A DNA stretch of 64,000 bases from a virus. Taxonomy: Duplodnaviria > Caudoviricetes. The stretch's first letter is position 1, and each line of letters starts with the position of its first letter. The position numbers and the translations under genes are program-made. The notes under the pieces are model-generated. The model saw only the letters and a list, made by a program, of their open reading frames with translations. It was not told the DNA's origin and did not search any database. The stretch is taken from IMG/VR virus record IMGVR_UViG_3300035428_000130, positions 1-64,000 of that record; one strand, written 5' to 3'. This document shows, one piece after another, positions 48-49,308 of the stretch.

Positions 48-1655
48 TTAGTCGATCTTGCCAACATAGCGATAATAGATTTCGATGTCCTGCTCCTTTG
101 TGCCGTCTTCGTGTTTTACAGCTTCGTGGATTACAATTTTCTCAATCAGATTATTGAGAAGTCCAGTATTTAATTCATCGAAAGATGATGCACTTTTGAT
201 AAGCTTAATCCATTTACCTATACTATCTATTCGCTGTTTTTCGCTTTCAATTTCACTGGATAACTCAGTAATTTTGGATTCAAGCTCACATTGCTCTTCT
301 TGGTATTTCTGTGTAAGCATAGCAAAATTGCGCTCACTAACAGTCCCAGCAATACGATCTTCATAAAGTTTCGACAGCATATTATCCAGCTTGCTTAATC
401 GTTGTTGTGCGGCCCGCAGACCATCAGCAGCTCGTTTTTTGTTTGCTCGCTCATTGGTGTCATTTTGCTGCATAAGACGAGCAATGGTAGCCTGTTCGTC
501 CCGTTGAACGATATCCACCCAAGATCGCAATCTTTGGAGCACATAGGCATACAGTACATCATAGCGGGTATAGTGTGAGGTACATTGGTTTACATGCTCA
601 ACACTCTTACGGCACCGATAATACGCATATGGTTTCTTGTTTTGCCGATTTACATTATACGATAAACCACATCCACAATCCGCACAACGCAGAAGTCCGG
701 CAAAGATTTGATTTGTACCGTTCTTGCGAGGCCGTCTGCGTTGCTCAATAAGCTTTTGTACCCGCTGAAATACTTCTTCAGACACAATTGGATCATGCGT
801 GTTTTCGATAATGAGCCATTTATCAGCACTGGTCTTGATGCGCTTTTTGCTTTTGAAGGAAACCTTTGTTTGTTGGTAATGTACGCTATGACCGAGATAT
901 ACTTGGTCGCTAAGGATTTTCTTTACCTGCCCAAGTCCCCAATCATACTTTTTGTTTTCTGGCTTTCCTTCAAAAATGTGCGCCCAGGTGCCGTATCTTT
1001 GAAAATTAAGCCATGCTGGAGTAGGAATTTTTTCGTTTACCAAAATACGCTGAATTTTAGATGGGCCGTCCCCAGCTAATGCAAGGTTGTAAATTTTCTC
1101 GACAATCCAGCGTGTTTCATTGTCGATGAGTAAATGGCATTTGTTATCAGGATCTTTCTTATAGCCAATAGGTGCGTGAGTAAAAACATGATCTCCTGCA
1201 AGGTATTTTGCTCGAAATACAGCTTTGATTTTACGGCTGGTGTCTTTTGCAAACCATTCATTAAACAGGTTTTTTATTGGAACAAAATCTGAAAGGCCAT
1301 GCTCTGAGTCTTCGTTATCAGTGACAGCGATAAACCGTACCCCCTTTTCAGGGAACACATATTCTAAATAGAAGTCCATCTGAACATGTTCACGGCCAAA
1401 GCGAGATAGATCTTTGACTATGACACAGTTGACCTTGCCATCACTAATGTCGTTCATCATGCGCTCAAAATTTGGGCGATCAAAGTTTGTCCCTGTCCAA
1501 CCGTCATCCACATATTCATCGACAACAGGGAATCCATGTTCTATAACGAACTGACTGAGGATGTTACGTTGTGTTTCAATGCTTACGCTATCGCCAAATT
1601 GTTCATCGTCTTTGCTTAGCCTCATATAGAGAGCAGCATTGTATGACTGCTTCAC
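48..1655 (-). CDS. Large serine recombinase (integrase) with recombinase, Zn-ribbon and C-terminal DUF4368-like regions
   Basis: YMRLS catalytic motif, DLSRFGR, CADC...C...C Zn ribbon, coiled coil, C-terminal IEIYYRYVG. Confidence 0.93.
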   Translation of the reverse strand: MKQSYNAALYMRLSKDDEQFGDSVSIETQRNILSQFVIEHGFPVVDEYVDDGWTGTNFDRPNFERMMNDISDGKVNCVIVKDLSRFGREHVQMDFYLEYVFPEKGVRFIAVTDNEDSEHGLSDFVPIKNLFNEWFAKDTSRKIKAVFRAKYLAGDHVFTHAPIGYKKDPDNKCHLLIDNETRWIVEKIYNLALAGDGPSKIQRILVNEKIPTPAWLNFQRYGTWAHIFEGKPENKKYDWGLGQVKKILSDQVYLGHSVHYQQTKVSFKSKKRIKTSADKWLIIENTHDPIVSEEVFQRVQKLIEQRRRPRKNGTNQIFAGLLRCADCGCGLSYNVNRQNKKPYAYYRCRKSVEHVNQCTSHYTRYDVLYAYVLQRLRSWVDIVQRDEQATIARLMQQNDTNERANKKRAADGLRAAQQRLSKLDNMLSKLYEDRIAGTVSERNFAMLTQKYQEEQCELESKITELSSEIESEKQRIDSIGKWIKLIKSASSFDELNTGLLNNLIEKIVIHEAVKHEDGTKEQDIEIYYRYVGKID

Positions 1656-2291: not shown

Positions 2292-2951
2292 TTAGTCTTC
2301 CTTATCTTCCTCAGCCTTTGGAGCGTAGACACATTCACTTGTTCCGTCATCATTGATAACCAAGGCACACAACGATCCGCCATAGTAACAGGCTGAGTCA
2401 ATGCAGATATCTCCTGTAGGTACGGCGTAGGCCAATCCATCCCTATTGGGAGTATGTCCGAATACAACCTGCTTTTCTCTGGGTTCAGTATCCTTCAACC
2501 ATTCTCGACTCCATAAAATGTCGAACTCAGTATTGTCCTTTAACTGAGGCTTTGCAAGGCCAGCATGACAAAAGATGATTTCTGGCGTGTCATAAACCAG
2601 TGGTAGGTTTTTGAACCACGAAATACTATTCGCAATATCAATACCAGCTCTTTCATAGCTGTAAATTGTTGCATATCCACCGTTTTGCATCCAAAGAGGA
2701 TCTTCTGTTCCGCCAGCATCAATAGCCATTTGCTCATGATTGCCTCTGAGACAAATACACTTATCTTTGCCGACCTGATGCTGGAGGTGTTTTATAAATT
2801 CGACAACTTCACAGCTAAATGGGCCACGATCTATGTAGTCACCAACAAAGACTAAAATATCAGTGGCGCTCGTATAATTCACCTTCACCAGAAGGTTTTT
2901 TAGGGTATGAAAACAGCCGTGAATATCTCCAATTGCAATTAGTCTATCCAT
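2292..2951 (-). CDS. Calcineurin-like metallophosphoesterase (Ser/Thr phosphatase family)
   Basis: GDIHG, GDYIDRG, GNHE, HAG, GHTP motifs. Confidence 0.92.
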   Translation of the reverse strand: MDRLIAIGDIHGCFHTLKNLLVKVNYTSATDILVFVGDYIDRGPFSCEVVEFIKHLQHQVGKDKCICLRGNHEQMAIDAGGTEDPLWMQNGGYATIYSYERAGIDIANSISWFKNLPLVYDTPEIIFCHAGLAKPQLKDNTEFDILWSREWLKDTEPREKQVVFGHTPNRDGLAYAVPTGDICIDSACYYGGSLCALVINDDGTSECVYAPKAEEDKED

Positions 2952-3225: not shown

Positions 3226-3486
3226 TTACACTACACACCCTTTCAAATTGACAACTTGGTCAAGATAGAAGAACTCAGTATGACTACCAACATCAAACTT
3301 GGTCATCTGCTGACCTTTGCATTCGGTATGCCAAATTCTTGTATAGTAGATTTTGAAATTTCGAGCGTCACAGAACTTCTTGATTTCTTTTTCTGCCGCC
3401 TCCAGATATTCTTTATCTGTCATGCCACTATCAAATTCGGCTACTACTCGCATTTCACCATGAGAATTTTTGAAATAGAGTGTCAT
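3226..3486 (-). CDS. Hypothetical phage protein
   Basis: ORF with RBS-like upstream sequence; FDVGSHTEFF. Confidence 0.6.
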   Translation of the reverse strand: MTLYFKNSHGEMRVVAEFDSGMTDKEYLEAAEKEIKKFCDARNFKIYYTRIWHTECKGQQMTKFDVGSHTEFFYLDQVVNLKGCVV

Positions 3487-3506
3487 GTATTTATCTCACC
3501 ATCCTT

Positions 3507-3734
3507 CTATGGCTGCTGGATATCTGCTCCAGCTTCAATTAGTTTTTTGAGATTAAGAAGAGCTTCTAATACATTCTTGTTATATAAGCCAAGCTCATAC
3601 TGCCAGCCGCTTGTCGCTGGTTTGAGAGGATTGTTATACGAAAGCTGATCCTCATAGATCTGTCTCACCTGCGCGATTTCCTCATCTGTAATCGCTCTAA
3701 TATCGGTGCAAATTTTCAAAATCTTGTTTTCCAT
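3507..3734 (-). CDS. Hypothetical protein
   Basis: GGAGG RBS, packed ORF. Confidence 0.6.
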   Translation of the reverse strand: MENKILKICTDIRAITDEEIAQVRQIYEDQLSYNNPLKPATSGWQYELGLYNKNVLEALLNLKKLIEAGADIQQP

Positions 3735-3746
3735 TGTTCCTCCGTA

Positions 3747-4217
3747 TTATGCCGCCGCTGGAGCGAGCTGATAAATTGTCACATTCATATCTTTGAAGTA
3801 AGTCTCTATCATTTGTGAAACAATCGCCCAGTCTCCATTTGCCAATCCACAGCCAAAGCCATATGGGAAAGCCAAAGATTTTCCAGCATATTTATTGCGG
3901 ATTTCATTAAAAGCGTTCGTCAAAGCAACGTAATCAGTATACTTTTTGTATGGATTGCGGCCATAGTCAAGCTGCCCAAAAATGTTCGCAACATGTTTAC
4001 CAGGTTCGACTTCAACCATTTGAACCCTACCTAATAGGTCTTGCGGCCTACCAAAAGATTCTGTTTGGCAAAACCATTGGTATTCATTTTTTACAGCAGG
4101 CCAGCGCTGATATAGTGCCTTTGCAACGCCCGCTCCCATTACTCCCTGACAATTTACTTGATGACAAATGATGTCTTCAGTAGCGTCAAGAATATTCCCA
4201 TAAACTGTTTTAATCAT
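3747..4217 (-). CDS. Macro domain protein (ADP-ribose binding/hydrolase)
   Basis: GNIL...ICHQVNCQGVMGAGVA and AFPYGFGCGLANGDW motifs. Confidence 0.9.
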   Translation of the reverse strand: MIKTVYGNILDATEDIICHQVNCQGVMGAGVAKALYQRWPAVKNEYQWFCQTESFGRPQDLLGRVQMVEVEPGKHVANIFGQLDYGRNPYKKYTDYVALTNAFNEIRNKYAGKSLAFPYGFGCGLANGDWAIVSQMIETYFKDMNVTIYQLAPAAA

Positions 4218-4761
4218 TAGGCCAGTCCTTTTTTAGCTCATCGGGAATAAGAATTACAGTCTTACTATCCCAATAGCAACAGTATTCTTCATACTTCTTA
4301 TTCCACTCTTCCGCAAACTTCTTAAATTCTTTATAGGCTTCATCGCAGAAATGAACACCCTCACAATCCAGCTCTTCTTCTAAATGCTCCAAAATGCTAC
4401 CTGGTTCAAGGCGCATATAAACACGGGTTGTACCATAGCAGTAGGTTGGTAAATCCTTAACGGCTATTCCTTCATCTGCAAGATGTTCCAGAAGATCATC
4501 CACAGATCCATAGTAATTGTCATTCCAATAGACCATGTTTCCAGGATTCGCCGCTTCATACTCTTCGACAGACATTTTAGCAGCCTTATCAAATCGGGCT
4601 TTTTCCTGACAGCTCTCACATTTTAATATGTATCTTGGGGTTTCTACTCCGCAAACCTCACAATGATACTGCTTACAGCAGATATCAGCAGCGTATTTAC
4701 TGGTATAAAGTGTGCCGCACTTATCACAAGCCCATATCCCAATGTTTTTCTTTGTCGCCAC
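4210..4761 (-). CDS. Cys-rich (Zn-finger) hypothetical protein
   Basis: Three CxxC pairs in the N-terminal part. Confidence 0.6.
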   Translation of the reverse strand: MATKKNIGIWACDKCGTLYTSKYAADICCKQYHCEVCGVETPRYILKCESCQEKARFDKAAKMSVEEYEAANPGNMVYWNDNYYGSVDDLLEHLADEGIAVKDLPTYCYGTTRVYMRLEPGSILEHLEEELDCEGVHFCDEAYKEFKKFAEEWNKKYEEYCCYWDSKTVILIPDELKKDWPND

Positions 4762-4928
4762 TTTAACACCTCTTAATCATCATCAGAATCAAAATAAGTA
4801 CCATATGACCAATGTTCTCCATATCCGCATTGGCACCTAAATACGTACTCTACAATATAACCCTCTTCATACCATACTCTTGGATGAGTTGGGCATCCAC
4901 ATTTAGGACAAACTCTTGGAGGACTCAT

Positions 4929-5508
4929 CTAAATTTCCTTTTCTCTAAATTGCTTCAGTTCTTCCAGCCACGTTGCCAATTGCAAATGCTCTTCGGCACA
5001 TTCACTGCATCCCAATTTTTTAGCAACATCATGACAATGCTCAATTGCTTCTGATAATGTCATTTTTGCCATAGGCTCACTCCTAAAAATGACCACCATA
5101 CTTGGAAATGGTGCAGAGTTCTTTCCATCTCCAAATTTCAACCGTCCACGAATGAAGCGGATTTCTACATTTGGCTTCTGGTATATGTAGTCGTGGAAGT
5201 AGCTGGTATCGGTTCTGGCTGGAATCAATAACACAATTGTTGTTCCAGGTTTCTTTGCTTCTTCCGAGCATTTCTTTACCCAGTCTTTTACCGCTCTGCC
5301 ATATGGCGGATTGCAGAAGACGGTCTGCCCCCCCCCAGCACTGTTCAAGTCCATTATCCTCTTCTGTAAAATACTTTTCACATTTATGGTTGAACTCGTC
5401 GGCACAGGGGTCAAGGGTAAAGTGAAACTCATCATCCAATTTGTCAAAGAAATTCTGTGGTGTCGCCCACTCCATTGATTTTGACGAAAACATTACTTCA
5501 AGATTGAT
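4929..5508 (-). pseudogene. Phage Dam-type N6-adenine MTase, frameshifted (OFF) at a G9 tract
   Basis: EWATPQ...LDPCA in one frame and NPPY...IPARTDT...GRLKF in another; G8 instead of G9 at 5328-5336 gives WGGQTVFCNPPY. Confidence 0.88.
5328..5336 (-). repeat. G9 tract (coding strand), OFF state of the Dam-type MTase
   Basis: C9 on the + strand at the frameshift point. Confidence 0.85.
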
Positions 5509-5531
5509 TACGCTTCACCTCATAATTTGAT

Positions 5532-6359
5532 TTACACCCAAGCTGCTTTTGCTGTATTCAGCATAAGCATTGCTCTTGTCATCGGGCCAACGCCACCAGG
5601 AACTGGAGTATATGCGGAAGTCTTTTTATAAACGTCAGGATCGCAGTCTCCACACAGCTTCCCATTAAGATTTCTGTTCATACCTACATCAATAACAACC
5701 GTACCCTCTCTTACTGCGTTTGGCCTAATAATTTCAGCCCTACCTACGGCAGAGATTAAAATATCAGCAGTCCTACAGATATCAATTAGTTTCCTTGTAT
5801 GTGAATGACATACTGTAACAGTAGCATCATTTTGAAGAGCCAGCATTGTCATCGGTTTTCCTACGATATTAGATCTTCCAACAATTACACAATGTTTGCC
5901 CGATAGACAAATACCATAATATTTCAAAAGCTCTACAATACCACCAGGAGTACATGGAAGAAAGTGTGGGTTTCCTTGGAGCAAAAGGCCGATGTTGTGT
6001 GGGGTAAAACAGTCTACATCTTTGCCAGGAGAAATTGCATTAACCACACGTTTTGGATCAATATGCTTAGGTAATGGCATTTGAACCAAAATCCCATCAA
6101 CGTGTGAATCGAACGAAAGAGTAGAAACCAGATCTACAATCTTTCTTTCCGATGTATCTTCGTCAAGAAGGTATTCTTTGCTAATGAATCCACATTGTTC
6201 ACAATCAGCTTCCTTGTTTCTAACATAAATCTGAGAAGCAGAATCATTACCAACTAACACAACAGCCAGACAAGGCCGACGCCTCTCACTTTCTGTCTTC
6301 AATGCAAGCTCTTCCTTAATTTCATTAGCCACTCTTTTGCCATCTAAAACAATTGCCAT
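5532..6359 (-). CDS. folD: Methylene-THF dehydrogenase/cyclohydrolase
   Basis: YVRNK, ILVQMPLP, KDVD, PCTP, VGRSNIVGKP, TPVPGGVGPMT. Confidence 0.95.
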   Translation of the reverse strand: MAIVLDGKRVANEIKEELALKTESERRRPCLAVVLVGNDSASQIYVRNKEADCEQCGFISKEYLLDEDTSERKIVDLVSTLSFDSHVDGILVQMPLPKHIDPKRVVNAISPGKDVDCFTPHNIGLLLQGNPHFLPCTPGGIVELLKYYGICLSGKHCVIVGRSNIVGKPMTMLALQNDATVTVCHSHTRKLIDICRTADILISAVGRAEIIRPNAVREGTVVIDVGMNRNLNGKLCGDCDPDVYKKTSAYTPVPGGVGPMTRAMLMLNTAKAAWV

Positions 6360-6370
6360 ATTTACCTCTC

Positions 6371-6742
6371 TCACAGCTTTTTGTGCATGGTGTACCTTTT
6401 CACACGCACATCAAGTTTCTTTTCTTTGGCGACTTTTATCATATGCTTGGTTCCAGGAGAATTGCCGTCCCAAAAAGCTACAAGCGCATCAGCGTATTCC
6501 GCCATTTGCACATTGCGTTTGTAGCCAGCAGATTTACCAAATGTATCCCAGTCTGCTGGCATATACCTAATACGGTAGCCATGTTCTTTTGCATACTGTT
6601 CTCCTAAACGATCAGCTCCACGGGCCATTCCGCACACAATTTCAATATCGTCTATAACGTTTTTCAAAAGGTAGTCGAGACTGGCAGCAAGCCCTTTATA
6701 ATTATTGAAGTCCCTACCACCAGCCACGATCACCTTGAACAT
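6371..6742 (-). CDS. SLOG/DUF2493-like protein
   Basis: VAGGRDF, GMARGAD, AGYKRNVQMA, FWDGNSPGTKHMI. Confidence 0.8.
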   Translation of the reverse strand: MFKVIVAGGRDFNNYKGLAASLDYLLKNVIDDIEIVCGMARGADRLGEQYAKEHGYRIRYMPADWDTFGKSAGYKRNVQMAEYADALVAFWDGNSPGTKHMIKVAKEKKLDVRVKRYTMHKKL

Positions 6743-24794: not shown

Positions 24795-25535
24795 CTAAAT
24801 GGGTACACAAGTTGGCATTGGAGAAAGCTTGTGAAGATTGCGCAGATGTAATGTTAGAATCTTTGCATCAACATCTTCACTGCCAGACGTTCCATACATA
24901 ATATAGTCATCAAGCTGGGTATAGGTAAAACCTAAGTTGTCCTCATCGGTTTTTCCACACAGCCCGTCAGATGGAACTTTGTCTACCAAATCGGTAGGAA
25001 GTCCAAGCTCGTGGCCGATTTGAATAACTTCATGCACCATCAAATTGGCAAGGGGACTAAAATCGCCAGCACTGTCACCATATTTGGTAGAATAACCTAC
25101 ATAATCCTCAGAGCAGTTACAAGTGTTGGCAACACGTCCGCCATTAGGCAAAGATTGAGAAATCGCATAGAGCATTGCCATACGGATACGAGCAGGCAAG
25201 TTCACCTTCGTTTGCTCCTTGACATCCATATAGACATCAATTTGGTCGATCATGCGCTGTACTTCATGGGAGATGTTGGTGTAAATGTATCGGATTCCTA
25301 AGTGCTGAATCAACCGTTTACTATCATCCAAATCTGATTGCTCACCGTTTGGCATCATTACCCCTACTACACGATTTTTGCCAAGCGCTTCTACGCAAAG
25401 TGTAGCAACAATACTGGAATCCTTACCACCGGAAATGCCGACTACAGCATCGCAAGTAGGGCCGTTCTCCTTAAAATAATCTCGTATCCAATTGACAATA
25501 TAGTCTTTTGTCCGTTTAGGGTTTCCCAACATCAA
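24795..25535 (-). CDS. nadE: NH3-dependent NAD+ synthetase
   Basis: GISGGKDSS, NLPARIRM, SE..VGYSTKYGD, KVPSDGL, TDEDNLG. Confidence 0.93.
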   Translation of the reverse strand: MMLGNPKRTKDYIVNWIRDYFKENGPTCDAVVGISGGKDSSIVATLCVEALGKNRVVGVMMPNGEQSDLDDSKRLIQHLGIRYIYTNISHEVQRMIDQIDVYMDVKEQTKVNLPARIRMAMLYAISQSLPNGGRVANTCNCSEDYVGYSTKYGDSAGDFSPLANLMVHEVIQIGHELGLPTDLVDKVPSDGLCGKTDEDNLGFTYTQLDDYIMYGTSGSEDVDAKILTLHLRNLHKLSPMPTCVPI

Positions 25536-27046
25536 AAATCACCCCCATGAAGATTCTGACGAACTTCATCCAAAGTATAGACTTTTAAGAGTTTACCATT
25601 TTTGAAGACGGTTTTAAGCTCGTTGTTATCCTGTGCTTCTTCCCAAGTCAGCCCATCTTCATAGGTATACTCATCACCATCCTTGGACACTCGACAACAA
25701 CCCCGTTGAGATTTCTTGAAATGCCCACTATCAGTCTTAGGATTTTTGAAAATCATAATGGATTTGCCGTCTATATCCTTAGCATAGGTGGCTTTAACAG
25801 CAATTCCAAATGTATCACGGGTAAAAGGAGCATACTGAACAGACTGCACCAAGCCAGAATTGTCGAGTGGATTAGCCTCCCAATGCTCCAAACATTGCAT
25901 GGAGAAGGAACCCACGCCAAGAGAGACGTTATTAATGGCAAACCCATTGTTCATCAGGATCTGATAGATTCGTTCGCACCGCTGCGGTGTAATGCTATCG
26001 CCATATAGCGCCTTGACATGAGGATTCAGAACCTTAAACCCCCTACTATTTACGGTGCCGCCGAAGATATCCCACAGCTTAAAAACAGTCTGTGTTACAA
26101 TCTGAACAGGATCTCCGCTATCGCCACGAACAGCAAGGCAGCCATCGTGCGCCAGCACATCTTCTTTAATCTCTGGCAAAATGACATTGACCAAATTCCA
26201 ATAGTCATAGCTATCGCTTACCATGGAAAAATTCTGGTGAGGATAAATCTCTTTCAGCAAACGCCGAATGTGTGTCACCTCATCGCCATCAATAGCGAAG
26301 TTGGAACACATAACACTATGTTCGGTAGACAAAGCGCCGTAGGCTACCTGGTCATACTCCACACGGCAAGCGTAATTGTGTTCCAACCAAAGAATAGCGG
26401 GGACTGTAGCCGTATTAAGAAAGCTGAGACAAAACGCAGCGGAGCTTTTAGTTGCGCTTTCTACACTCTCTTGCCCACGCATAGAAAAATCTCCTAAGAG
26501 CTTGGCTCGCACTACGCTGTCATCACAAGTCAGCTCTGCATACTTATTGACGATCTGCCGATAACGATAGCCAACTTCTGCCGAAATCTGGGTATGCCAC
26601 ATAGTACAAGACAGCATAGTCTCGATGGAATTGACCAGCCACACAAATCGAGGGTTGGTGTTGGATATCTCAATTTGAGGCACCTTGATATTGGTGCGGG
26701 CACCCTCTGGAACAGCACGAATCTCCAAAGGCAAGTAGCCCAATCTATGAAGAGCTGCCACACGGCCTCTGCCTACACCGTTTGTATCAATAGTGTTTTT
26801 AAGAATCCGCTCATACTCTTCAAGCACCACGTCCAATGAACGGTTAAAGAAGTTGGTATTGAACGCTTCAATCAAGTATTCCTGAATGAACGCCTGAAGA
26901 CCAAACATCGTAATCTTATCGACATCTTCCAGACGGGTCATACGTGGCGTATAATAAGACACCATTTTTGTTAGTGTCGCCGGATACTGGCCTGCATGTG
27001 CTGTTTTGTAGAAATCCAGACACAGCAAAGGATTGTATGAAATCAT
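25532..27046 (-). CDS. Nampt-family nicotinamide/nicotinate phosphoribosyltransferase (Namat-like)
   Basis: LDFYK, DFSMRG, STEHS, VSDSYD, RGDSG, YGDSI, RDTFGIAVKAT, KKSQRG. Confidence 0.9.
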   Translation of the reverse strand: MISYNPLLCLDFYKTAHAGQYPATLTKMVSYYTPRMTRLEDVDKITMFGLQAFIQEYLIEAFNTNFFNRSLDVVLEEYERILKNTIDTNGVGRGRVAALHRLGYLPLEIRAVPEGARTNIKVPQIEISNTNPRFVWLVNSIETMLSCTMWHTQISAEVGYRYRQIVNKYAELTCDDSVVRAKLLGDFSMRGQESVESATKSSAAFCLSFLNTATVPAILWLEHNYACRVEYDQVAYGALSTEHSVMCSNFAIDGDEVTHIRRLLKEIYPHQNFSMVSDSYDYWNLVNVILPEIKEDVLAHDGCLAVRGDSGDPVQIVTQTVFKLWDIFGGTVNSRGFKVLNPHVKALYGDSITPQRCERIYQILMNNGFAINNVSLGVGSFSMQCLEHWEANPLDNSGLVQSVQYAPFTRDTFGIAVKATYAKDIDGKSIMIFKNPKTDSGHFKKSQRGCCRVSKDGDEYTYEDGLTWEEAQDNNELKTVFKNGKLLKVYTLDEVRQNLHGGDF

Positions 27047-27071
27047 TGTCCGATTCCCTCTTTTCATTGAA

Positions 27072-27857
27072 TTATTTACAAATGGTAATCTTATCATGAC
27101 TGATACGCAAGATACTGTCTGTAGTAAACACATGAGAAATAAGGCCGTCAGTCAAAACAGTCCCGTCTAAGATTGTATTCTCACAATGAGTAACATACAG
27201 TAGAATCTTTTCAGCGCCAGCCGCTTTCAACGCTTTGGCCGTATATGTAAAGGTGCCGCCGCGAGAACAGATATCGTCCACGATCAGGATGTTTCTACCA
27301 GCAACCTTCTCGGGAGTTGTCAGTTCCGTTCGCTCAATTTTACCAGTACGCCAATCACGGTGCTTAATACAGAAGACATATTCCATAGGAATCATCTCAG
27401 AATACCGCTTGGCAGCTCCCTCGTCTGGATAACACAACAAAGAATTCATTTCCTGGCTTACCATAAACTGAATCGGCTGGTTGATGTAGTATTTCACATC
27501 CATGACCTTTACGTTGTTAATGAGCGCCGTCGCCACATTTGAGTGTGGATCAAGCACACGGACAAGTCTGAAATTGAGTGAATTGATGAAATCAGCAAAC
27601 CATTTAAGTGTGAAAACTTCGTCGCTGTTTTTCACCCGATCCATTCTGGCGTTTGGAATATACGGCATATTCAAATACAAATCGTCAATGCCCATAGCTC
27701 TCAAGTGTTTTACCAAATACAGGAGGTGCATACATTCGGCATCGTTGTCGTACTTCCAACTAATGTTACAAGTACCCGCCTCCAAGCCAAAACGAAATGA
27801 CGATGTACCATCAGGAAAATTGGTGAAATTGACGTTTCTTCCATTGACAAGAATCAT
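27072..27857 (-). CDS. prs: Ribose-phosphate pyrophosphokinase homolog (Prs/Adps-like)
   Basis: FPDG, PYIPNARMDR, DPHS, PDEGA, VDDICSRGGTF. Confidence 0.88.
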   Translation of the reverse strand: MILVNGRNVNFTNFPDGTSSFRFGLEAGTCNISWKYDNDAECMHLLYLVKHLRAMGIDDLYLNMPYIPNARMDRVKNSDEVFTLKWFADFINSLNFRLVRVLDPHSNVATALINNVKVMDVKYYINQPIQFMVSQEMNSLLCYPDEGAAKRYSEMIPMEYVFCIKHRDWRTGKIERTELTTPEKVAGRNILIVDDICSRGGTFTYTAKALKAAGAEKILLYVTHCENTILDGTVLTDGLISHVFTTDSILRISHDKITICK

Positions 27858-27858
27858 C

Positions 27859-28404
27859 TTAGCCCTCCCAATTCTCTACATTGATTTGACACATCTTCAT
27901 AACCGCCAGAGCATTGGCATGACTCTCAGGAGTTACACCAGCACAACAAGCTGCATCAACGGTAATCTTAGCTTCTGGCAGAAAAGCCCTGAGAAGCAAT
28001 GCGTTGGAAATCACGCAGATGTCGGTACAAAGGCCGACCAGAACGATCTCGTCAATATGCCATGCCGTTTTGCTTTTGATGTGTAGGTATTCACCCAGCT
28101 CGGCAGAGCCAAACGTCTTCTTTTCAAATGTAGAAGACCACGCTCCATTGTCCAGAAGAGCATTGAAAAGGACATCGGGAACACACCACCCAGAAGTTTT
28201 CTTAATGCAATGCTCAACGGGAAGCAGTTTTCCCTCTTGCGTTTTCAGGTAGTCCTTATCATGGGTATCCATGGTCAAAACGATTTCGCCATAAGATTCC
28301 TTGGCCTTTTCGATAACCTTAGGCAAAATTGCCTGTGCTTCTTTGGTTCCAAGTGCGCCGTCGATGAAATCATTTTGCATATCAACGATAACTAAAACTT
28401 TCAT
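27859..28404 (-). CDS. pncA: Nicotinamidase (isochorismatase family)
   Basis: VDMQNDF, DTH, HC, K, GLCTDICV (D-K-C triad). Confidence 0.85.
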   Translation of the reverse strand: MKVLVIVDMQNDFIDGALGTKEAQAILPKVIEKAKESYGEIVLTMDTHDKDYLKTQEGKLLPVEHCIKKTSGWCVPDVLFNALLDNGAWSSTFEKKTFGSAELGEYLHIKSKTAWHIDEIVLVGLCTDICVISNALLLRAFLPEAKITVDAACCAGVTPESHANALAVMKMCQINVENWEG

Positions 28405-39263: not shown

Positions 39264-40466
39264 TTATACAATTCTCTCTGCAACTACTTGGATGTCTGTC
39301 CGCTTTTCTCCCAAGCTAAGATACTTTACCTTTGCTGGAAGAGTACAATCCAATGTATCCTCAAAAGCCAGCTCATCCAAATGAGTTACCGCTAATACAT
39401 TTTTCATATTGCTGAAGTCATTTGCTAAGTATGCGGTATCCCTGAGCAATGAGGCTCTAAAAAGTTCCATATCAAAACGACCATATCGAAGTTCACCTTG
39501 AAACTCATTCTTTCGGTTTGTCTGATCCGCCGCTTCAATACCCAAATCGCTTTTGCTACACTCGCTGGGAAATGGCCCATTGCCATGACGTGTAAAATAG
39601 GAGCGAGTCACATAGCAAACCTCAATATCCGCATCTGAATAATGAGCGGCCAGCAGAATGTTCTTGGGATTATCGGAACCTGTTTTTGAAGTAGTCAAAT
39701 ATGGGGCGAAAGGCTTGTTATCCATATCCAAAAGAAGCCCCTGTGCCCCTTCAAAAACCAAATGGTCATAGATGTTCAAGACGCTATCGTCAGCCATTCT
39801 GCAATAGCTAAGCATCTCGTGAAGCTGGTCAATCCACCTATATAAAAGCACATCACTATGGATACGCTCATAATCTTCCATAGATAGATTTGTTACCCCG
39901 TGTTCCTTCAATCTTGCTGGCACATACCGCTTGCGAATATCCATCAAAATGAGATCCAGCGGAGTAGATAAAATTTTCTTGGCCGAAAGTAAATTGCGCT
40001 GCGGATATCCAAACATCAGAGAGTGGTATCGCACTACTGTTTCATTGATACCTAATCCACAGCTCCCATGCCGATTATCACCAAGAGAATTCTCAGCGAT
40101 TTGATTGACAAGCATATCATAAGGTGTCGTAATTCGGCAGTTGGGATGAATGTATACACGGGGAGTCAAGTTAAACTGCTTTTTTAAGGCTTCCAGTTCT
40201 TTGCAAAAGAGAATTGGGTTGAGGATGAAGTCTTCAGAAAGATAGGTAGCGACATGGGGATTGAAACTTCCCGCCCCAAAATGACTGAACACATGCCGTT
40301 TGCCATCTGGTGTAACTACGGTGTGGCCCGCCTGTGCGCCGCCATTGTGCCGAATATTCAGCACACTTCCGTTTGCAGAAAGTTCATTACAGAAATAGTC
40401 GGTCATCAGCCCTTTGCCCTCATCTCCGAAGTTTGCGCCAATTACCACCTTTATCTGCTTTTCCAT
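39264..40466 (-). CDS. Adenylosuccinate synthetase homolog (PurA-like)
   Basis: GANFGDEGKG, GGAQAGHT, GSCGLG, EGAQG, TRHGNGPF. Confidence 0.88.
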   Translation of the reverse strand: MEKQIKVVIGANFGDEGKGLMTDYFCNELSANGSVLNIRHNGGAQAGHTVVTPDGKRHVFSHFGAGSFNPHVATYLSEDFILNPILFCKELEALKKQFNLTPRVYIHPNCRITTPYDMLVNQIAENSLGDNRHGSCGLGINETVVRYHSLMFGYPQRNLLSAKKILSTPLDLILMDIRKRYVPARLKEHGVTNLSMEDYERIHSDVLLYRWIDQLHEMLSYCRMADDSVLNIYDHLVFEGAQGLLLDMDNKPFAPYLTTSKTGSDNPKNILLAAHYSDADIEVCYVTRSYFTRHGNGPFPSECSKSDLGIEAADQTNRKNEFQGELRYGRFDMELFRASLLRDTAYLANDFSNMKNVLAVTHLDELAFEDTLDCTLPAKVKYLSLGEKRTDIQVVAERIV

Positions 40467-47730: not shown

Positions 47731-49308
47731 TTACAGATAGCTCAGAGCCTTGCCAATGGGCGCATACCGCTCACTGTTCAAAGTCTCCAGCAAGCACTCG
47801 TAGGGATCAGTCCTGCCGCTCATGACCATCTTGACGATGTTGGTGCTAAACCCGCTAACCAGGGCAACCCCCAAATCATTCTCGATGACAGGAATGGTGC
47901 CAGTACGGGAGTTGACGTTCCAGAACACCATTCTGGGAATCTGGTAGCCAGCCTCGGCGTAGCGCTTGGCAATCGTTTGGAACAGCTTGGCATTAGGACG
48001 ATTGCCGCCATAGCCGCCATAGCCATAACCACGACGAGCCGCACCACATGTAGCGCAACTGTCAAACTCCATATCAGAGATGATAAGGATGTTCTGGGGC
48101 AAGTCCTCCTGCGCCATATTGTTCTTGACCGCCGTAGAGAGAATCAGATCAAACACCGCCTCGATGTTGGTATTTGCCACCTCATTGTGCTGCAAGGCAA
48201 TCTGAATCTTCTCTCGAAGGTTCTTGCCGCTACTCAGATTGACAAGCTGAGGATGCTCGGAGAAGGTGATGTACTGATCCTTGAACTGGCCGGAAGAACG
48301 CTCAGCAAAGTAGATTGCCAGGGCATTAGCGACCTCCAGTGCGGTAGTAGAGGTGCCACCAACAGTGGTAGTCATACTGCCGCTTCCATCGGCCACAACA
48401 ATGGTATTGCCGCAGCCCTGTACCGTATCGGGGAGGGACTTCCATAGAGCCTCCAAGGTCTGATCCAGAGGCTTGAGACGGTCACGCCCCCAACCGTCGC
48501 CCATCATGTACTTACTCACAACATCGTGAGGATACAGAGTAGAGGCGTTGATCTTCACCTCGCCCTTTTCCAGAGCGGCCAGGAAAGCGCGACGGCGATC
48601 CTCGTCATTGCGCAGAAACGCATTGTTGTAAATCAGGTTCGCACGAGAGGGCACAGCCTCATACCTGATTGTATCCCAGGTGCGGGCGGACATTTTGCGC
48701 TCCACCACATCCAACTTCTTACGCAGACGAGAGAGTGTCTTGCGGTAATCCCGCTCAGTAACGCCAATATACTTGAAGATCTTCTTGGCGTATCGCTTGG
48801 TAGTGGGAGAGGACGCATTGGGAGAGGGGAGCCACTTCGCCAGAAGAGAGATGTTCTCGCCCTTGCTGGCTGCTTTCACATCCTCCACCAACTGCTTCTT
48901 GACCAGTGCCATCACATTGTCGGCCAGCTCCGTGTCCAGCAGGCTCCACAGGTCATCATATCTGCCGTACTCAGGCACCAGATTGATGAGAGGGATGATG
49001 TACTCGGGATTGGACACCGCCATCCGCTCAAACACAGAGCGGAACAACCGGCGCTCGCCCAAGCCACCACGTACATCGCGGGCGAAGAACAGCCACTTCA
49101 TGGCCGTTACCTTGTCCTCAAAGAACGCCCGCATAAAGCGGTCATAGATATCCTTGGGATTGGCCCGCCGCAGAGAAGCCACAGCGAAGTTGATATCCAA
49201 CAGTTCCTTGCCGGAGGTACGATAACCAACAGCGCCGTTCTCGGTGACAGACACGTTGAACTCATCGTTCAAAGTCCCCTTGACCGCAGACATAAAATTC
49301 TTGCTCAT
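47731..49308 (-). CDS. DUF2828 family TROVE/Ro60-like helical domain + vWA protein
   Basis: TENGA, RDVRGGLGER, YGRYDDL, AKWLP, VPSRA, DGSGSM MIDAS, ISDMEFD, FWNV, VSGFS. Confidence 0.88.
   Translation of the reverse strand: MSKNFMSAVKGTLNDEFNVSVTENGAVGYRTSGKELLDINFAVASLRRANPKDIYDRFMRAFFEDKVTAMKWLFFARDVRGGLGERRLFRSVFERMAVSNPEYIIPLINLVPEYGRYDDLWSLLDTELADNVMALVKKQLVEDVKAASKGENISLLAKWLPSPNASSPTTKRYAKKIFKYIGVTERDYRKTLSRLRKKLDVVERKMSARTWDTIRYEAVPSRANLIYNNAFLRNDEDRRRAFLAALEKGEVKINASTLYPHDVVSKYMMGDGWGRDRLKPLDQTLEALWKSLPDTVQGCGNTIVVADGSGSMTTTVGGTSTTALEVANALAIYFAERSSGQFKDQYITFSEHPQLVNLSSGKNLREKIQIALQHNEVANTNIEAVFDLILSTAVKNNMAQEDLPQNILIISDMEFDSCATCGAARRGYGYGGYGGNRPNAKLFQTIAKRYAEAGYQIPRMVFWNVNSRTGTIPVIENDLGVALVSGFSTNIVKMVMSGRTDPYECLLETLNSERYAPIGKALSYL

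Follow-up and report, generated by a model that had tools for sequence, protein, structure and literature searches.

We identified a four-gene operon in a temperate phage of gut Clostridia that probably encodes a deamidated variant of the NARP1 pathway, in which NAD+ would be rebuilt from the products of NADases by way of nicotinate and without an adenylyltransferase. The operon lies within a window of 64,000 nt taken from a viral record of 100,965 bp (~101 kb), which is estimated to be 75% complete. As we envisage the pathway, a host NADase (SIR2, TIR or a similar effector) would cleave NAD+ into ADP-ribose (ADPR) and nicotinamide, and a phage nicotinamidase would then convert nicotinamide to nicotinate. 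An Adps-like enzyme would turn ADP-ribose and ATP into ADP-ribose pyrophosphate (ADPR-PP), and a Namat-like transferase, whose pocket no longer has the Asp that binds the amide and has acquired a Ser, would form deamido-NAD (NaAD) directly from nicotinate and ADPR-PP. Finally, an ammonia-type NadE would convert NaAD to NAD+ at the expense of ATP. Such a route would bypass both the mononucleotide intermediate and an adenylyltransferase. While the genes themselves are observed, we infer the substrates of the second and third steps and the role in counter-defence. In the literature on NARP1-type and nicotinate-route enzymes, we found no paper describing such a pathway or its transferase reaction; it would be an undescribed variant of NARP1 phage counter-defence.

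The original prediction had described four contiguous, co-oriented genes, and in the ORF map four minus-strand ORFs span positions 28404 to 24795 exactly (Table 1). From pncA to nadE, the intergenic spacing is 1 nt, then 25 nt between the Adps-like and Namat-like genes, which share a strand, and the last two genes overlap. For the transferase, the longest ORF starts at 27133, while homologs and a GAGGG ribosome-binding site favour the ATG at 27046. A scan for promoters and terminators returned no more sites than shuffled sequence.

Table 1. Coordinates of the operon genes, of key transferase sites and of a Macro-domain-like ORF in the window.
Feature	Position	Strand	Details
PncA-like nicotinamidase, isochorismatase family	27859..28404	-	181 aa; Pfam PF00857 Isochorismatase, E 1e-19
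Adps-like Prs homolog	27072..27857	-	261 aa; phrog_619, E 9e-73
Nampt/Namat-like transferase, non-Asp base pocket	25532..27046	-	504 aa; phrog_448, E 3e-153
NadE, single-domain ammonia-type NAD synthetase	24795..25535	-	246 aa; PF02540, E 8e-53
Codon of transferase Ala213 (= SPbetaL1 Namat Asp215, human NAMPT Asp219)	26408..26410	-	26402-26416 translates NTATV
Codon of transferase Ser240 (= SPbetaL1 Namat Ala242, nicotinamide-contacting)	26327..26329	-	
Remodelled adenine selectivity clamp, transferase residues 379-411	25814..25912	-	GSFSMQ + ~22-residue insert + FTRD
Macro-domain-like ORF	3747..4217	-	156 aa; 38-42% identity to Macro-domain genes embedded in sister clusters

The outer two genes of the operon encode a nicotinamidase and an NAD synthetase. 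The PncA-like protein has the isochorismatase fold and carries both the Asp-Lys-Cys triad and the Asp-His-His metal site. Among solved structures, the P. horikoshii nicotinamidase (1ilw/1im5, E 3e-10) is closest to it. The catalytic residues (D8, K95 and C130) and the metal ligands (D46, H48 and H65) show no variation among 75-78 sister-cluster homologs; the NCBIfam PncA score of the protein lies under the equivalog cut-off (34 vs 174 bits). NadE scores 177 bits with TIGR00552 (cut-off 64) and has no glutaminase domain; across 81 homologs, its SGGxDS P-loop is invariant, as are other residues. The solved structures closest to it are P. horikoshii NadE (2e18, E 1e-39) and, in second place, Francisella NadE (3fiu, E 3e-33). 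The latter acts as an NMN synthetase (PMC3376133), and by analogy the phage protein could convert NaMN to NMN and leave it to a host NMN adenylyltransferase to complete NAD+. We consider this extremely unlikely. The top relative is a NadE of the archaeal type, and the short archaeal NadE of M. jannaschii is a strictly NaAD-using NAD synthetase without NMN synthetase activity. Furthermore, NadM, the companion of the Francisella adaptation, is absent from these phages, and nothing would be gained by the detour, as an enzyme of the Nampt type reaches NMN in one step.

The Prs homolog had been proposed to be of the Adps type, and several family-level comparisons agree. The protein shares 36% identity with the validated SPbetaL1 Adps (E 2e-50), versus E 5e-14 at best for true Prs structures. 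Under the TIGR01251 Prs model it reaches 95 bits and, like SPbetaL1 Adps (106 bits) and ICP1 Adps (98 bits), stays below the cut-off of 113 bits. In a Prs/Adps tree with E. coli Prs as outgroup, it was placed between ICP1 Adps and SPbetaL1 Adps, that is, bracketed by two validated enzymes, and this tree was congruent with that of the transferase. The C-terminus is short, and the ICP1 Adps residues F18, R87, H121, D161, K185 (catalytic), D212 and D213 are retained. Since most acceptor residues are common to Adps and Prs, we dropped residue-level discrimination as weak and based the assignment on sequence similarity, the family cut-offs and the bracketing in the tree. Judged by its sequence, the Prs homolog is a member of the Adps family and not a true Prs.

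The transferase descends from NARP1 as well. Its closest solved structure is SPbetaL1 Namat (9w5w/9w5x, E 1e-117; ~41% identity), and with the AF2 model (pLDDT 92) a Foldseek search returned 9w5x (TM 0.90/0.93) and 9w5w as top matches. Transferases without the pocket Asp ('non-Asp') form a single clade (SH-aLRT 97) that is joined with SPbetaL1 Namat at a support of 99; ICP1 Namat diverges more deeply, with T4-like Nampt as the outgroup. Both middle proteins of the operon nest inside the validated Adps and Namat families, and their genes are found paired again at almost every related locus. The catalytic core of the transferase is conserved (phospho-His, Arg306, Asp308, Phe189, Arg192, Asp13 and Tyr15).

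The replacement of human NAMPT Asp219 by Ala, originally aligned by eye, is correct: residues 211-215 (NTATV) align with GTDTI of SPbetaL1 Namat. In the latter, Asp215 binds the nicotinamide amide and a D215A exchange lowers NAD+ formation ~8-fold (PMC12774641), while Asp219 determines the substrate specificity of NAMPT (PMC7096376). At the position equivalent to residue 213, we found Ala or Ser in 85/85 non-Asp loci and Asp in 81/81 canonical loci. The Ala242-equivalent is Ser in every one of the former and Ala in every one of the latter. Among 50%-identity cluster representatives, the residue pairs at both positions were D/A (94), A/S (33) and S/S (16), and of the 147 nearest clusters at 50% identity with readable pocket positions, about one third had the non-Asp pocket. 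At the level of these alignments, the non-Asp pocket is a trait of the clade and not an accident.

This pocket comes together with PncA and NadE. Both were present in 76 of the 85 non-Asp viral or metagenome loci, in at least four gene orders, and the four-gene set recurred at 69 of the 80 loci drawn from bacterial genome assemblies, which argues against a chance juxtaposition. Most of the nine remaining viral or metagenome loci end at contig edges. Of the few non-Asp loci that lack NadE, one lies in a record of 23% completeness, and the rest belong to MAG bins that have host NadE genes elsewhere. Neither PncA nor NadE was detected in the flanks of Asp-type NARP1 loci (0/81), and searches of 50 entire Asp-type records revealed no real NadE. 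The linkage holds down to ~45% identity and across rearrangements; it counts as one evolutionary event, because the non-Asp clade has a single origin.

All four genes belong to ordinary NAD-metabolism families, their order varies, and in some loci PncA or NadE is up to several kb away from the transferase. This would fit two independent modules, with Adps and Namat acting on nicotinamide (Ser240 serving as amide partner) and with PncA and NadE boosting the host's nicotinate salvage. Such an arrangement appears very unlikely, since in all loci whose flanks suffice, the pocket substitutions go hand in hand with PncA and NadE. In addition, D215A costs SPbetaL1 Namat most of its activity on nicotinamide (a drop of ~8-fold; PMC12774641), and a phage nicotinamidase would consume the substrate of a nicotinamide-using Namat.

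The original prediction found no NadD, NadM or NadR in the window and asked about the rest of the genome. A search with PF01467 detected no such adenylyltransferase, whether in the window, elsewhere in the 100,965-bp record (75% complete) or in any of 26 non-Asp virus records with a completeness of 90% or more. PnuC was likewise not found in the record, and a PncB-type NAPRTase is absent, the only phosphoribosyltransferase-like gene being the Namat-derived one. ADP-ribose-related accessories, on the other hand, are frequent: among 74 non-Asp viral loci, 41 contain a Macro-domain gene and 11 a NADAR gene inside the cluster. In NARP1-AP, the accessory is Adpp, a Macro-domain ADPR-1''-phosphate phosphatase (bioRxiv 10.64898/2026.01.28.702374). 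The Macro-domain-like ORF of the window has no Pfam match and lies ~20 kb from the operon, and its phage homologs are annotated as macro-domain proteins or ADP-ribose 1''-phosphate phosphatases; it is possibly a distant Adpp-like accessory, with uncertain membership in the module.

The adenine selectivity clamp, whose motif in Namat is GSxPhixPhixPhiTRD (PMC12774641), is remodelled in the transferase. The window protein retains Arg40, the Phe at position 3 and TRD; in place of the position-7 aromatic it has an insert of ~22 residues, which AF2 models as a beta-hairpin (385-407) with a low-confidence tip. Between conserved flanks, this segment varies from 6 to 22 residues among relatives at least 74% identical. 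We rejected the insert as a sole hypervariable spot; it is one of ~5 regions with comparable variability. In Namat, the position-3 aromatic stacks on adenine, whereas true Nampts have Gly or Gln there (Gly in the Nampt of phage Miro, Gln in HdNadV). Of 52 non-Asp representatives, 49 retain this aromatic and 44 retain Arg40. Because the position-7 aromatic gave way to a variable hairpin, adenine recognition is not assured.

The displaced aromatic is one of several points in favour of the main alternative, a boosted Preiss-Handler salvage in which the Prs-like enzyme would make PRPP, the transferase would make NaMN, host NadD would convert NaMN to NaAD and phage NadE would finish. NadD is present in essentially all bacteria, and the host would supply it. 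HdNadV (9ke8, 36% identity), a true Nampt, is a close structural relative of the transferase. [quoted passage not shown] The most basal non-Asp member (P0255) moreover adjoins an NMNAT-like gene and has its clamp deleted, which hints that this member may use a mononucleotide route. For the operon as such, we nevertheless judge the salvage reading rather unlikely. Starting from a NARP1 ancestor, it demands two added specificity changes, one in Adps and one in the transferase, although both proteins are bracketed by validated ADPR and ADPR-PP enzymes, and the clamp still has its position-3 aromatic and Arg40. The ADPR-handling Macro (Adpp-like) and NADAR genes of many sister clusters make little sense with a PRPP route, and it would be strange if phages supplied four of the five steps but left out NadD in each of the 26 near-complete genomes. 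All steps of the proposed nicotinate-routed pathway that can be tested by comparison (Adps family, Namat clade, pocket linkage, missing adenylyltransferase and NARP1 accessories in sister clusters) came out in its favour.

NARP1 consists of Adps and Namat and is known from Bacillus phage SPbetaL1, Escherichia phage Bas63 and Vibrio phage ICP1 (bioRxiv 10.1101/2024.02.11.579819; PMC12774641; PMC13586617). The operon shares with it a neighbouring Prs-like and Nampt-like pair from within the validated families, the lack of an adenylyltransferase and, in the transferase, the catalytic His, Arg306, Asp308, Arg40, the position-3 aromatic and TRD. It differs from NARP1 in the exchanges of Asp215 for Ala and Ala242 for Ser, in the variable clamp insert, in the accompanying nicotinamidase and NAD synthetase (seen with none of the 81 canonical loci) and in the predicted transferase product, NaAD instead of NAD+. 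With NARP1-AP it has in common the Macro-domain gene of many sister operons, of which the window genome carries a homolog (3747-4217), but this gene is remote from the operon and not called by Pfam, and PncA and NadE are no part of NARP1-AP (bioRxiv 10.64898/2026.01.28.702374). NARP2 (Nampt and NMNAT, e.g. in Vibrio phage KVP40) and NARP3 (PnuC and NadR; PMC13464706) are phage-encoded NAD+ restoration pathways too, and NARP2 also employs a Nampt-superfamily enzyme. Unlike these, the record has no NMNAT, NadR or PnuC, and the transferase is far nearer to Namat than to the T4-like Nampt. Bacterial Preiss-Handler salvage (PncA, PncB, NadD and NadE) follows the same logic of deamidation and subsequent reamidation, with PncA first and NadE last. 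It differs in its middle part, where the operon has NARP1-derived enzymes in place of a PncB-type NAPRTase and NadD, and the AMP-ribose moiety would come from ADP-ribose rather than from PRPP and ATP.

The variant has so far been missing from studies of cultured phages, because the only deposited non-Asp record in our protein search was an unannotated human faecal scaffold (MT835544.1, 58% identity); when the operon was compared by megablast with 50,697 phage records, there was no match. It should be experimentally reachable, since prophages carrying the module occur in cultured Oscillospiraceae from the gut, for instance Dysosmobacter segnis and Hominicoprocola fusiformis. For the clade as a whole, we lean towards the view that non-Asp Namats form NaAD and PPi from nicotinate and ADPR-PP, as part of a four-enzyme deamidated NARP1 with a wide distribution among temperate phages of gut Clostridia.

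The detour via nicotinate costs the phage one extra ATP and two extra genes, which raises the question of its reason. It may trap membrane-permeant nicotinamide as an anion, pull a reversible transferase step forward, match hosts that quickly deamidate nicotinamide, or yield an intermediate that is poorly cleaved by NADases. The natural switch from Asp to Ala or Ser, together with that from Ala to Ser, makes it possible to probe cleanly how the Nampt/Namat fold selects its pyridine base. If our reading is true, the transferase would represent a new enzyme activity, the formation of deamido-NAD directly from ADP-ribose pyrophosphate and nicotinate, and the operon would be a fourth metabolic strategy in the conflict between phages and bacteria over NAD+.

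The original prediction placed a four-gene operon at 24795-28404, and these coordinates proved exact: four packed minus-strand genes encode a PncA-like protein, a Prs homologue, a Nampt-like transferase and NadE. It further proposed that nicotinamide is converted to nicotinate, ADPR to ADPR-PP, both are joined to NaAD, and NaAD is converted to NAD+. The ATG at 27046 is the most likely transferase start, because database homologues start there and a GAGGG ribosome-binding site lies upstream. With this start, the first two gaps of the operon measure 1 nt and 25 nt, and the last two genes overlap slightly. No operon-internal terminator stood out in a scan that performed no better than on shuffled sequence. 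The window covers the leading 64 kb of a 100,965-bp IMG/VR virus record (75% complete according to CheckV), and the operon lies among phage genes for replication and DNA modification. These include NrdD, a DNA polymerase, a primase-helicase, a large serine recombinase, PAPS-reductase-like genes and numerous DNA methyltransferases. Together with the nearby DNA methyltransferases and PAPS-reductase-like genes, a PurZ-type ORF could indicate a modified-base genome (2-aminoadenine?).

Coordinates of features in the window and in related loci
Feature	Location	Strand	Description
PncA-like / isochorismatase-family protein	window, within 28404-24795	-	181 aa; Pfam PF00857, E 1e-19
Prs-like protein	window, within 28404-24795	-	261 aa; phrog_619 'ribose-phosphate pyrophosphokinase', E 9e-73
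Nampt-like transferase	window, probable ATG start 27046	-	504 aa; phrog_448, E 3e-153
NadE	window, within 28404-24795	-	246 aa; PF02540, E 8e-53
Large serine recombinase/integrase	window 48-1655	-	phrog_95, E 9e-98
Calcineurin-like phosphoesterase	window 2292-2951	-	PF00149, E 1e-24; phage early region, close to Macro-like ORF
FolD-type methylenetetrahydrofolate dehydrogenase/cyclohydrolase	window 5532-6374	-	E 7e-64; phage early region, close to Macro-like ORF
PurZ-type ORF	window 39264-40466	-	400 aa; phrog_1211, adenylosuccinate-synthetase-like family, E 5e-66
ORF matching 'RNA-binding protein'	window 47731-49308	-	525 aa; phrog_850, E 6e-139
Basal non-Asp transferase region	L172 (Logan SRR32747400 contig) 3236-6418		beside NMNAT-like gene (PF01467, 183 aa) and Prs-like gene
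Macro/NADAR-domain genes	sister cluster L063 11443-12314		between Namat-like gene and NadE
Macro/NADAR-domain genes	sister cluster L018 11683-12156		between Namat-like gene and NadE
Macro/NADAR-domain genes	sister cluster L015 11478-11972		between Namat-like gene and NadE
~135-aa protein	L029 11467-11874		between transferase and NadE
~135-aa protein	L174 2399-2818		between transferase and NadE

The closest PDB match of the window transferase is 9w5w/9w5x (HMMER, E 1e-117), titled in Foldseek as Namat crystal structures with NAD and with nicotinamide. The pocket alignment, originally made by eye, holds: NTATV of the window aligns with GTDTI of SPbetaL1 Namat. In the latter, Asp215 hydrogen-bonds nicotinamide and the D215A exchange lowers NAD+ formation about 8-fold (PMC12774641); in human NAMPT, the corresponding Asp219 determines substrate specificity (PMC7096376). 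A second pocket change replaces the nicotinamide-contacting Ala242 of SPbetaL1 Namat by Ser. We searched 1.84 billion cluster representatives without a profile and aligned the best 150 matches. Among these, the Asp215/Ala242 positions are Asp/Ala in 94 clusters ('Asp-type' for the kept Asp), and the Asp215 position is Ala, Ser or Val in 51 ('non-Asp'), all but one of which carry Ser at the Ala242 position. Many Namat-family representatives (P0121-P0270) are 560-1114 aa long and match the query in 2-4 separate pieces, with breaks often around residues 318-320; their transferase genes may carry inteins or other large insertions.

Maximum likelihood analysis, rooted on T4-like phage Nampts, supported the kinship with Namat. 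The non-Asp proteins formed one clade (20 rows, SH-aLRT 97), nested in a support-99 clade that also includes SPbetaL1 Namat, an enzyme validated biochemically; ICP1 Namat branched further out. This nesting indicates that the non-Asp enzymes descend from an ADPR-PP-using Namat ancestor. The non-Asp pocket is a clade trait.

As to the donor, the evidence leans towards ADPR-PP over PRPP as the predicted substrate. Position 3 of the adenine selectivity clamp (a motif with aromatics at positions 3 and 7, ending in TRD) is an adenine-stacking aromatic in Namat. Of the 52 non-Asp representatives, 49 have Phe or Tyr there, while true Nampts have Gly (phage Miro) or Gln (HdNadV). The clamp is kept only in part, which is a caveat: in the window it reads GSFSMQ, followed by a variable-length insert and a conserved aromatic-x-Pro-Phe/Tyr-TRD; among relatives at least 74% identical, the insert spans 6-22 residues between conserved flanks. 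In an AlphaFold model of the transferase (pLDDT 92, pTM 0.91), the insert forms a beta-hairpin at residues 385-407, the tip of which is modelled with low confidence.

A live alternative is that the transferase makes NaMN from PRPP and host NadD completes the pathway. To our knowledge, NadD is always present in bacterial hosts, which counts for the NaMN route, as does the use of PRPP by Namat in vitro (PMC12774641). It also gains from the most basal non-Asp protein (P0255, encoded by locus L172), which has NMNAT-like and Prs-like neighbours, a GSAT pocket and a clamp partly lost (shortened to GSYTYQ...RD), resembling a reversion to the mononucleotide route. This protein may be a mononucleotide-route relative; its setting looks bacterial (PadR, FtsW) and the contig stops 441 bp downstream. 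In favour of ADPR-PP, the absence of an adenylyltransferase, first noted for the window, extends beyond it to all 26 near-complete non-Asp virus genomes. Overall, a PF01467 gene was found in 5 of 46 non-Asp records, well away from the cluster where coordinates were compared.

The proposed affinity of the Prs homologue to Adps was borne out, which again favours ADPR-PP: it shares 36% identity with SPbetaL1 Adps (E 2e-50), whereas no solved Prs enzyme matches better than E 5e-14. Pfam Prs domains were detected below threshold only, and the protein falls below the TIGR01251 cut-off, as do the validated SPbetaL1 and ICP1 Adps. Its short length (261 aa) fits Adps, which is reported to lack the C-terminal helices of Prs (PMC13586617), and Lys185 and the acceptor-site residues of Adps are kept. 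The Prs-like tree mirrors the transferase tree. Partners of non-Asp transferases form a group that shares a supported clade with SPbetaL1 Adps, with ICP1 Adps outside and E. coli Prs as a long outgroup branch.

For the PncA-like protein, the closest solved relative is P. horikoshii nicotinamidase. The Asp-Lys-Cys triad and Asp-His-His metal site, which distinguish nicotinamidases within the isochorismatase fold, are kept across 78 homologues. The window NadE scores above the cut-off of the NadE equivalog model, and its single-domain form marks it as ammonia-type. A minor alternative is that it acts as an NMN synthetase, Francisella-like, and a Francisella NMN-synthetase relative is indeed its second-ranked solved match. 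However, the top-ranked one is an archaeal-type enzyme, and the short NadE of the archaeon M. jannaschii works as an NAD synthetase strictly on NaAD (PMC3376133).

We sampled 80 viral loci by a non-Asp profile, 80 by an Asp-type profile and a few others, with flanks of up to 10 kb. Within these flanks, PncA and NadE were both present in 76 of 85 non-Asp loci (exceptions mostly truncated by contig ends) and both absent from all 81 Asp-type loci including SPbetaL1, counts that represent lineages and not independent events because of the single origin of the non-Asp state. In 50 Asp-type records searched over their full length, no genuine NadE was found. The linkage survived rearrangement, since non-Asp clusters occur in at least four gene orders, with all genes always on the same strand. 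We also surveyed bacterial one-genome-per-species assemblies. The 80 best loci all had the pocket NTAT (one NTAS) with Ser at the second position, and 69 contained all three partner genes. Relatives of the operon with 81% identity occur in the isolates Dysosmobacter segnis BX15, Hominicoprocola fusiformis CLA-AA-H269 and Oscillospiraceae bacterium 50-58. These isolate genomes identify gut Oscillospiraceae and other Clostridia as hosts and, together with the large serine recombinase, mark the phage as temperate.

Additional genes are embedded in many clusters, and those for ADPR handling count further towards ADPR-PP. Among 74 complete non-Asp viral loci, 41 had a Macro-domain gene and 11 a NADAR gene inside the cluster; for Asp-type loci, a Macro gene lay inside or at most 1.5 kb away in ~12%, near the published 15%. 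In NARP1-AP, the accessory is a Macro-domain protein for which ADPR-1''-phosphate phosphatase activity was demonstrated by experiment (bioRxiv 10.64898/2026.01.28.702374). NADAR is nearly restricted to non-Asp viral loci (19 of 80 versus 1 of 80 Asp-type). A ~135-aa protein (loci L029 and L174) has no Pfam match; its DFDDT sequence may represent a HAD-like phosphatase motif, and 13 non-Asp and 6 Asp-type viral loci have a member of its family within the cluster.

PncA, NadE and nicotinic acid are unmentioned in the founding NARP paper and two 2026 follow-up preprints, and we found no paper in the literature searched that connects ADPR-PP with any of them. NARP1 uses nicotinamide as substrate, and Adps and Namat suffice (bioRxiv 10.1101/2024.02.11.579819). 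NARP1-AP adds the Macro phosphatase to NARP1 (bioRxiv 10.64898/2026.01.28.702374), NARP2 consists of Nampt and NMNAT, and NARP3 of PnuC and NadR (PMC13464706). The operon is NARP1-derived but lacks the defining Asp of Namat, and its predicted transferase product is NaAD. Nicotinate-routed NAD+ rebuilding via NaAD is supported as the most parsimonious reading of the operon, with the direct route to NaAD somewhat probable and both the chemistry and a counter-defence role remaining predictions. The four-gene module is best called a NARP1 variant, one not previously reported in the literature searched.
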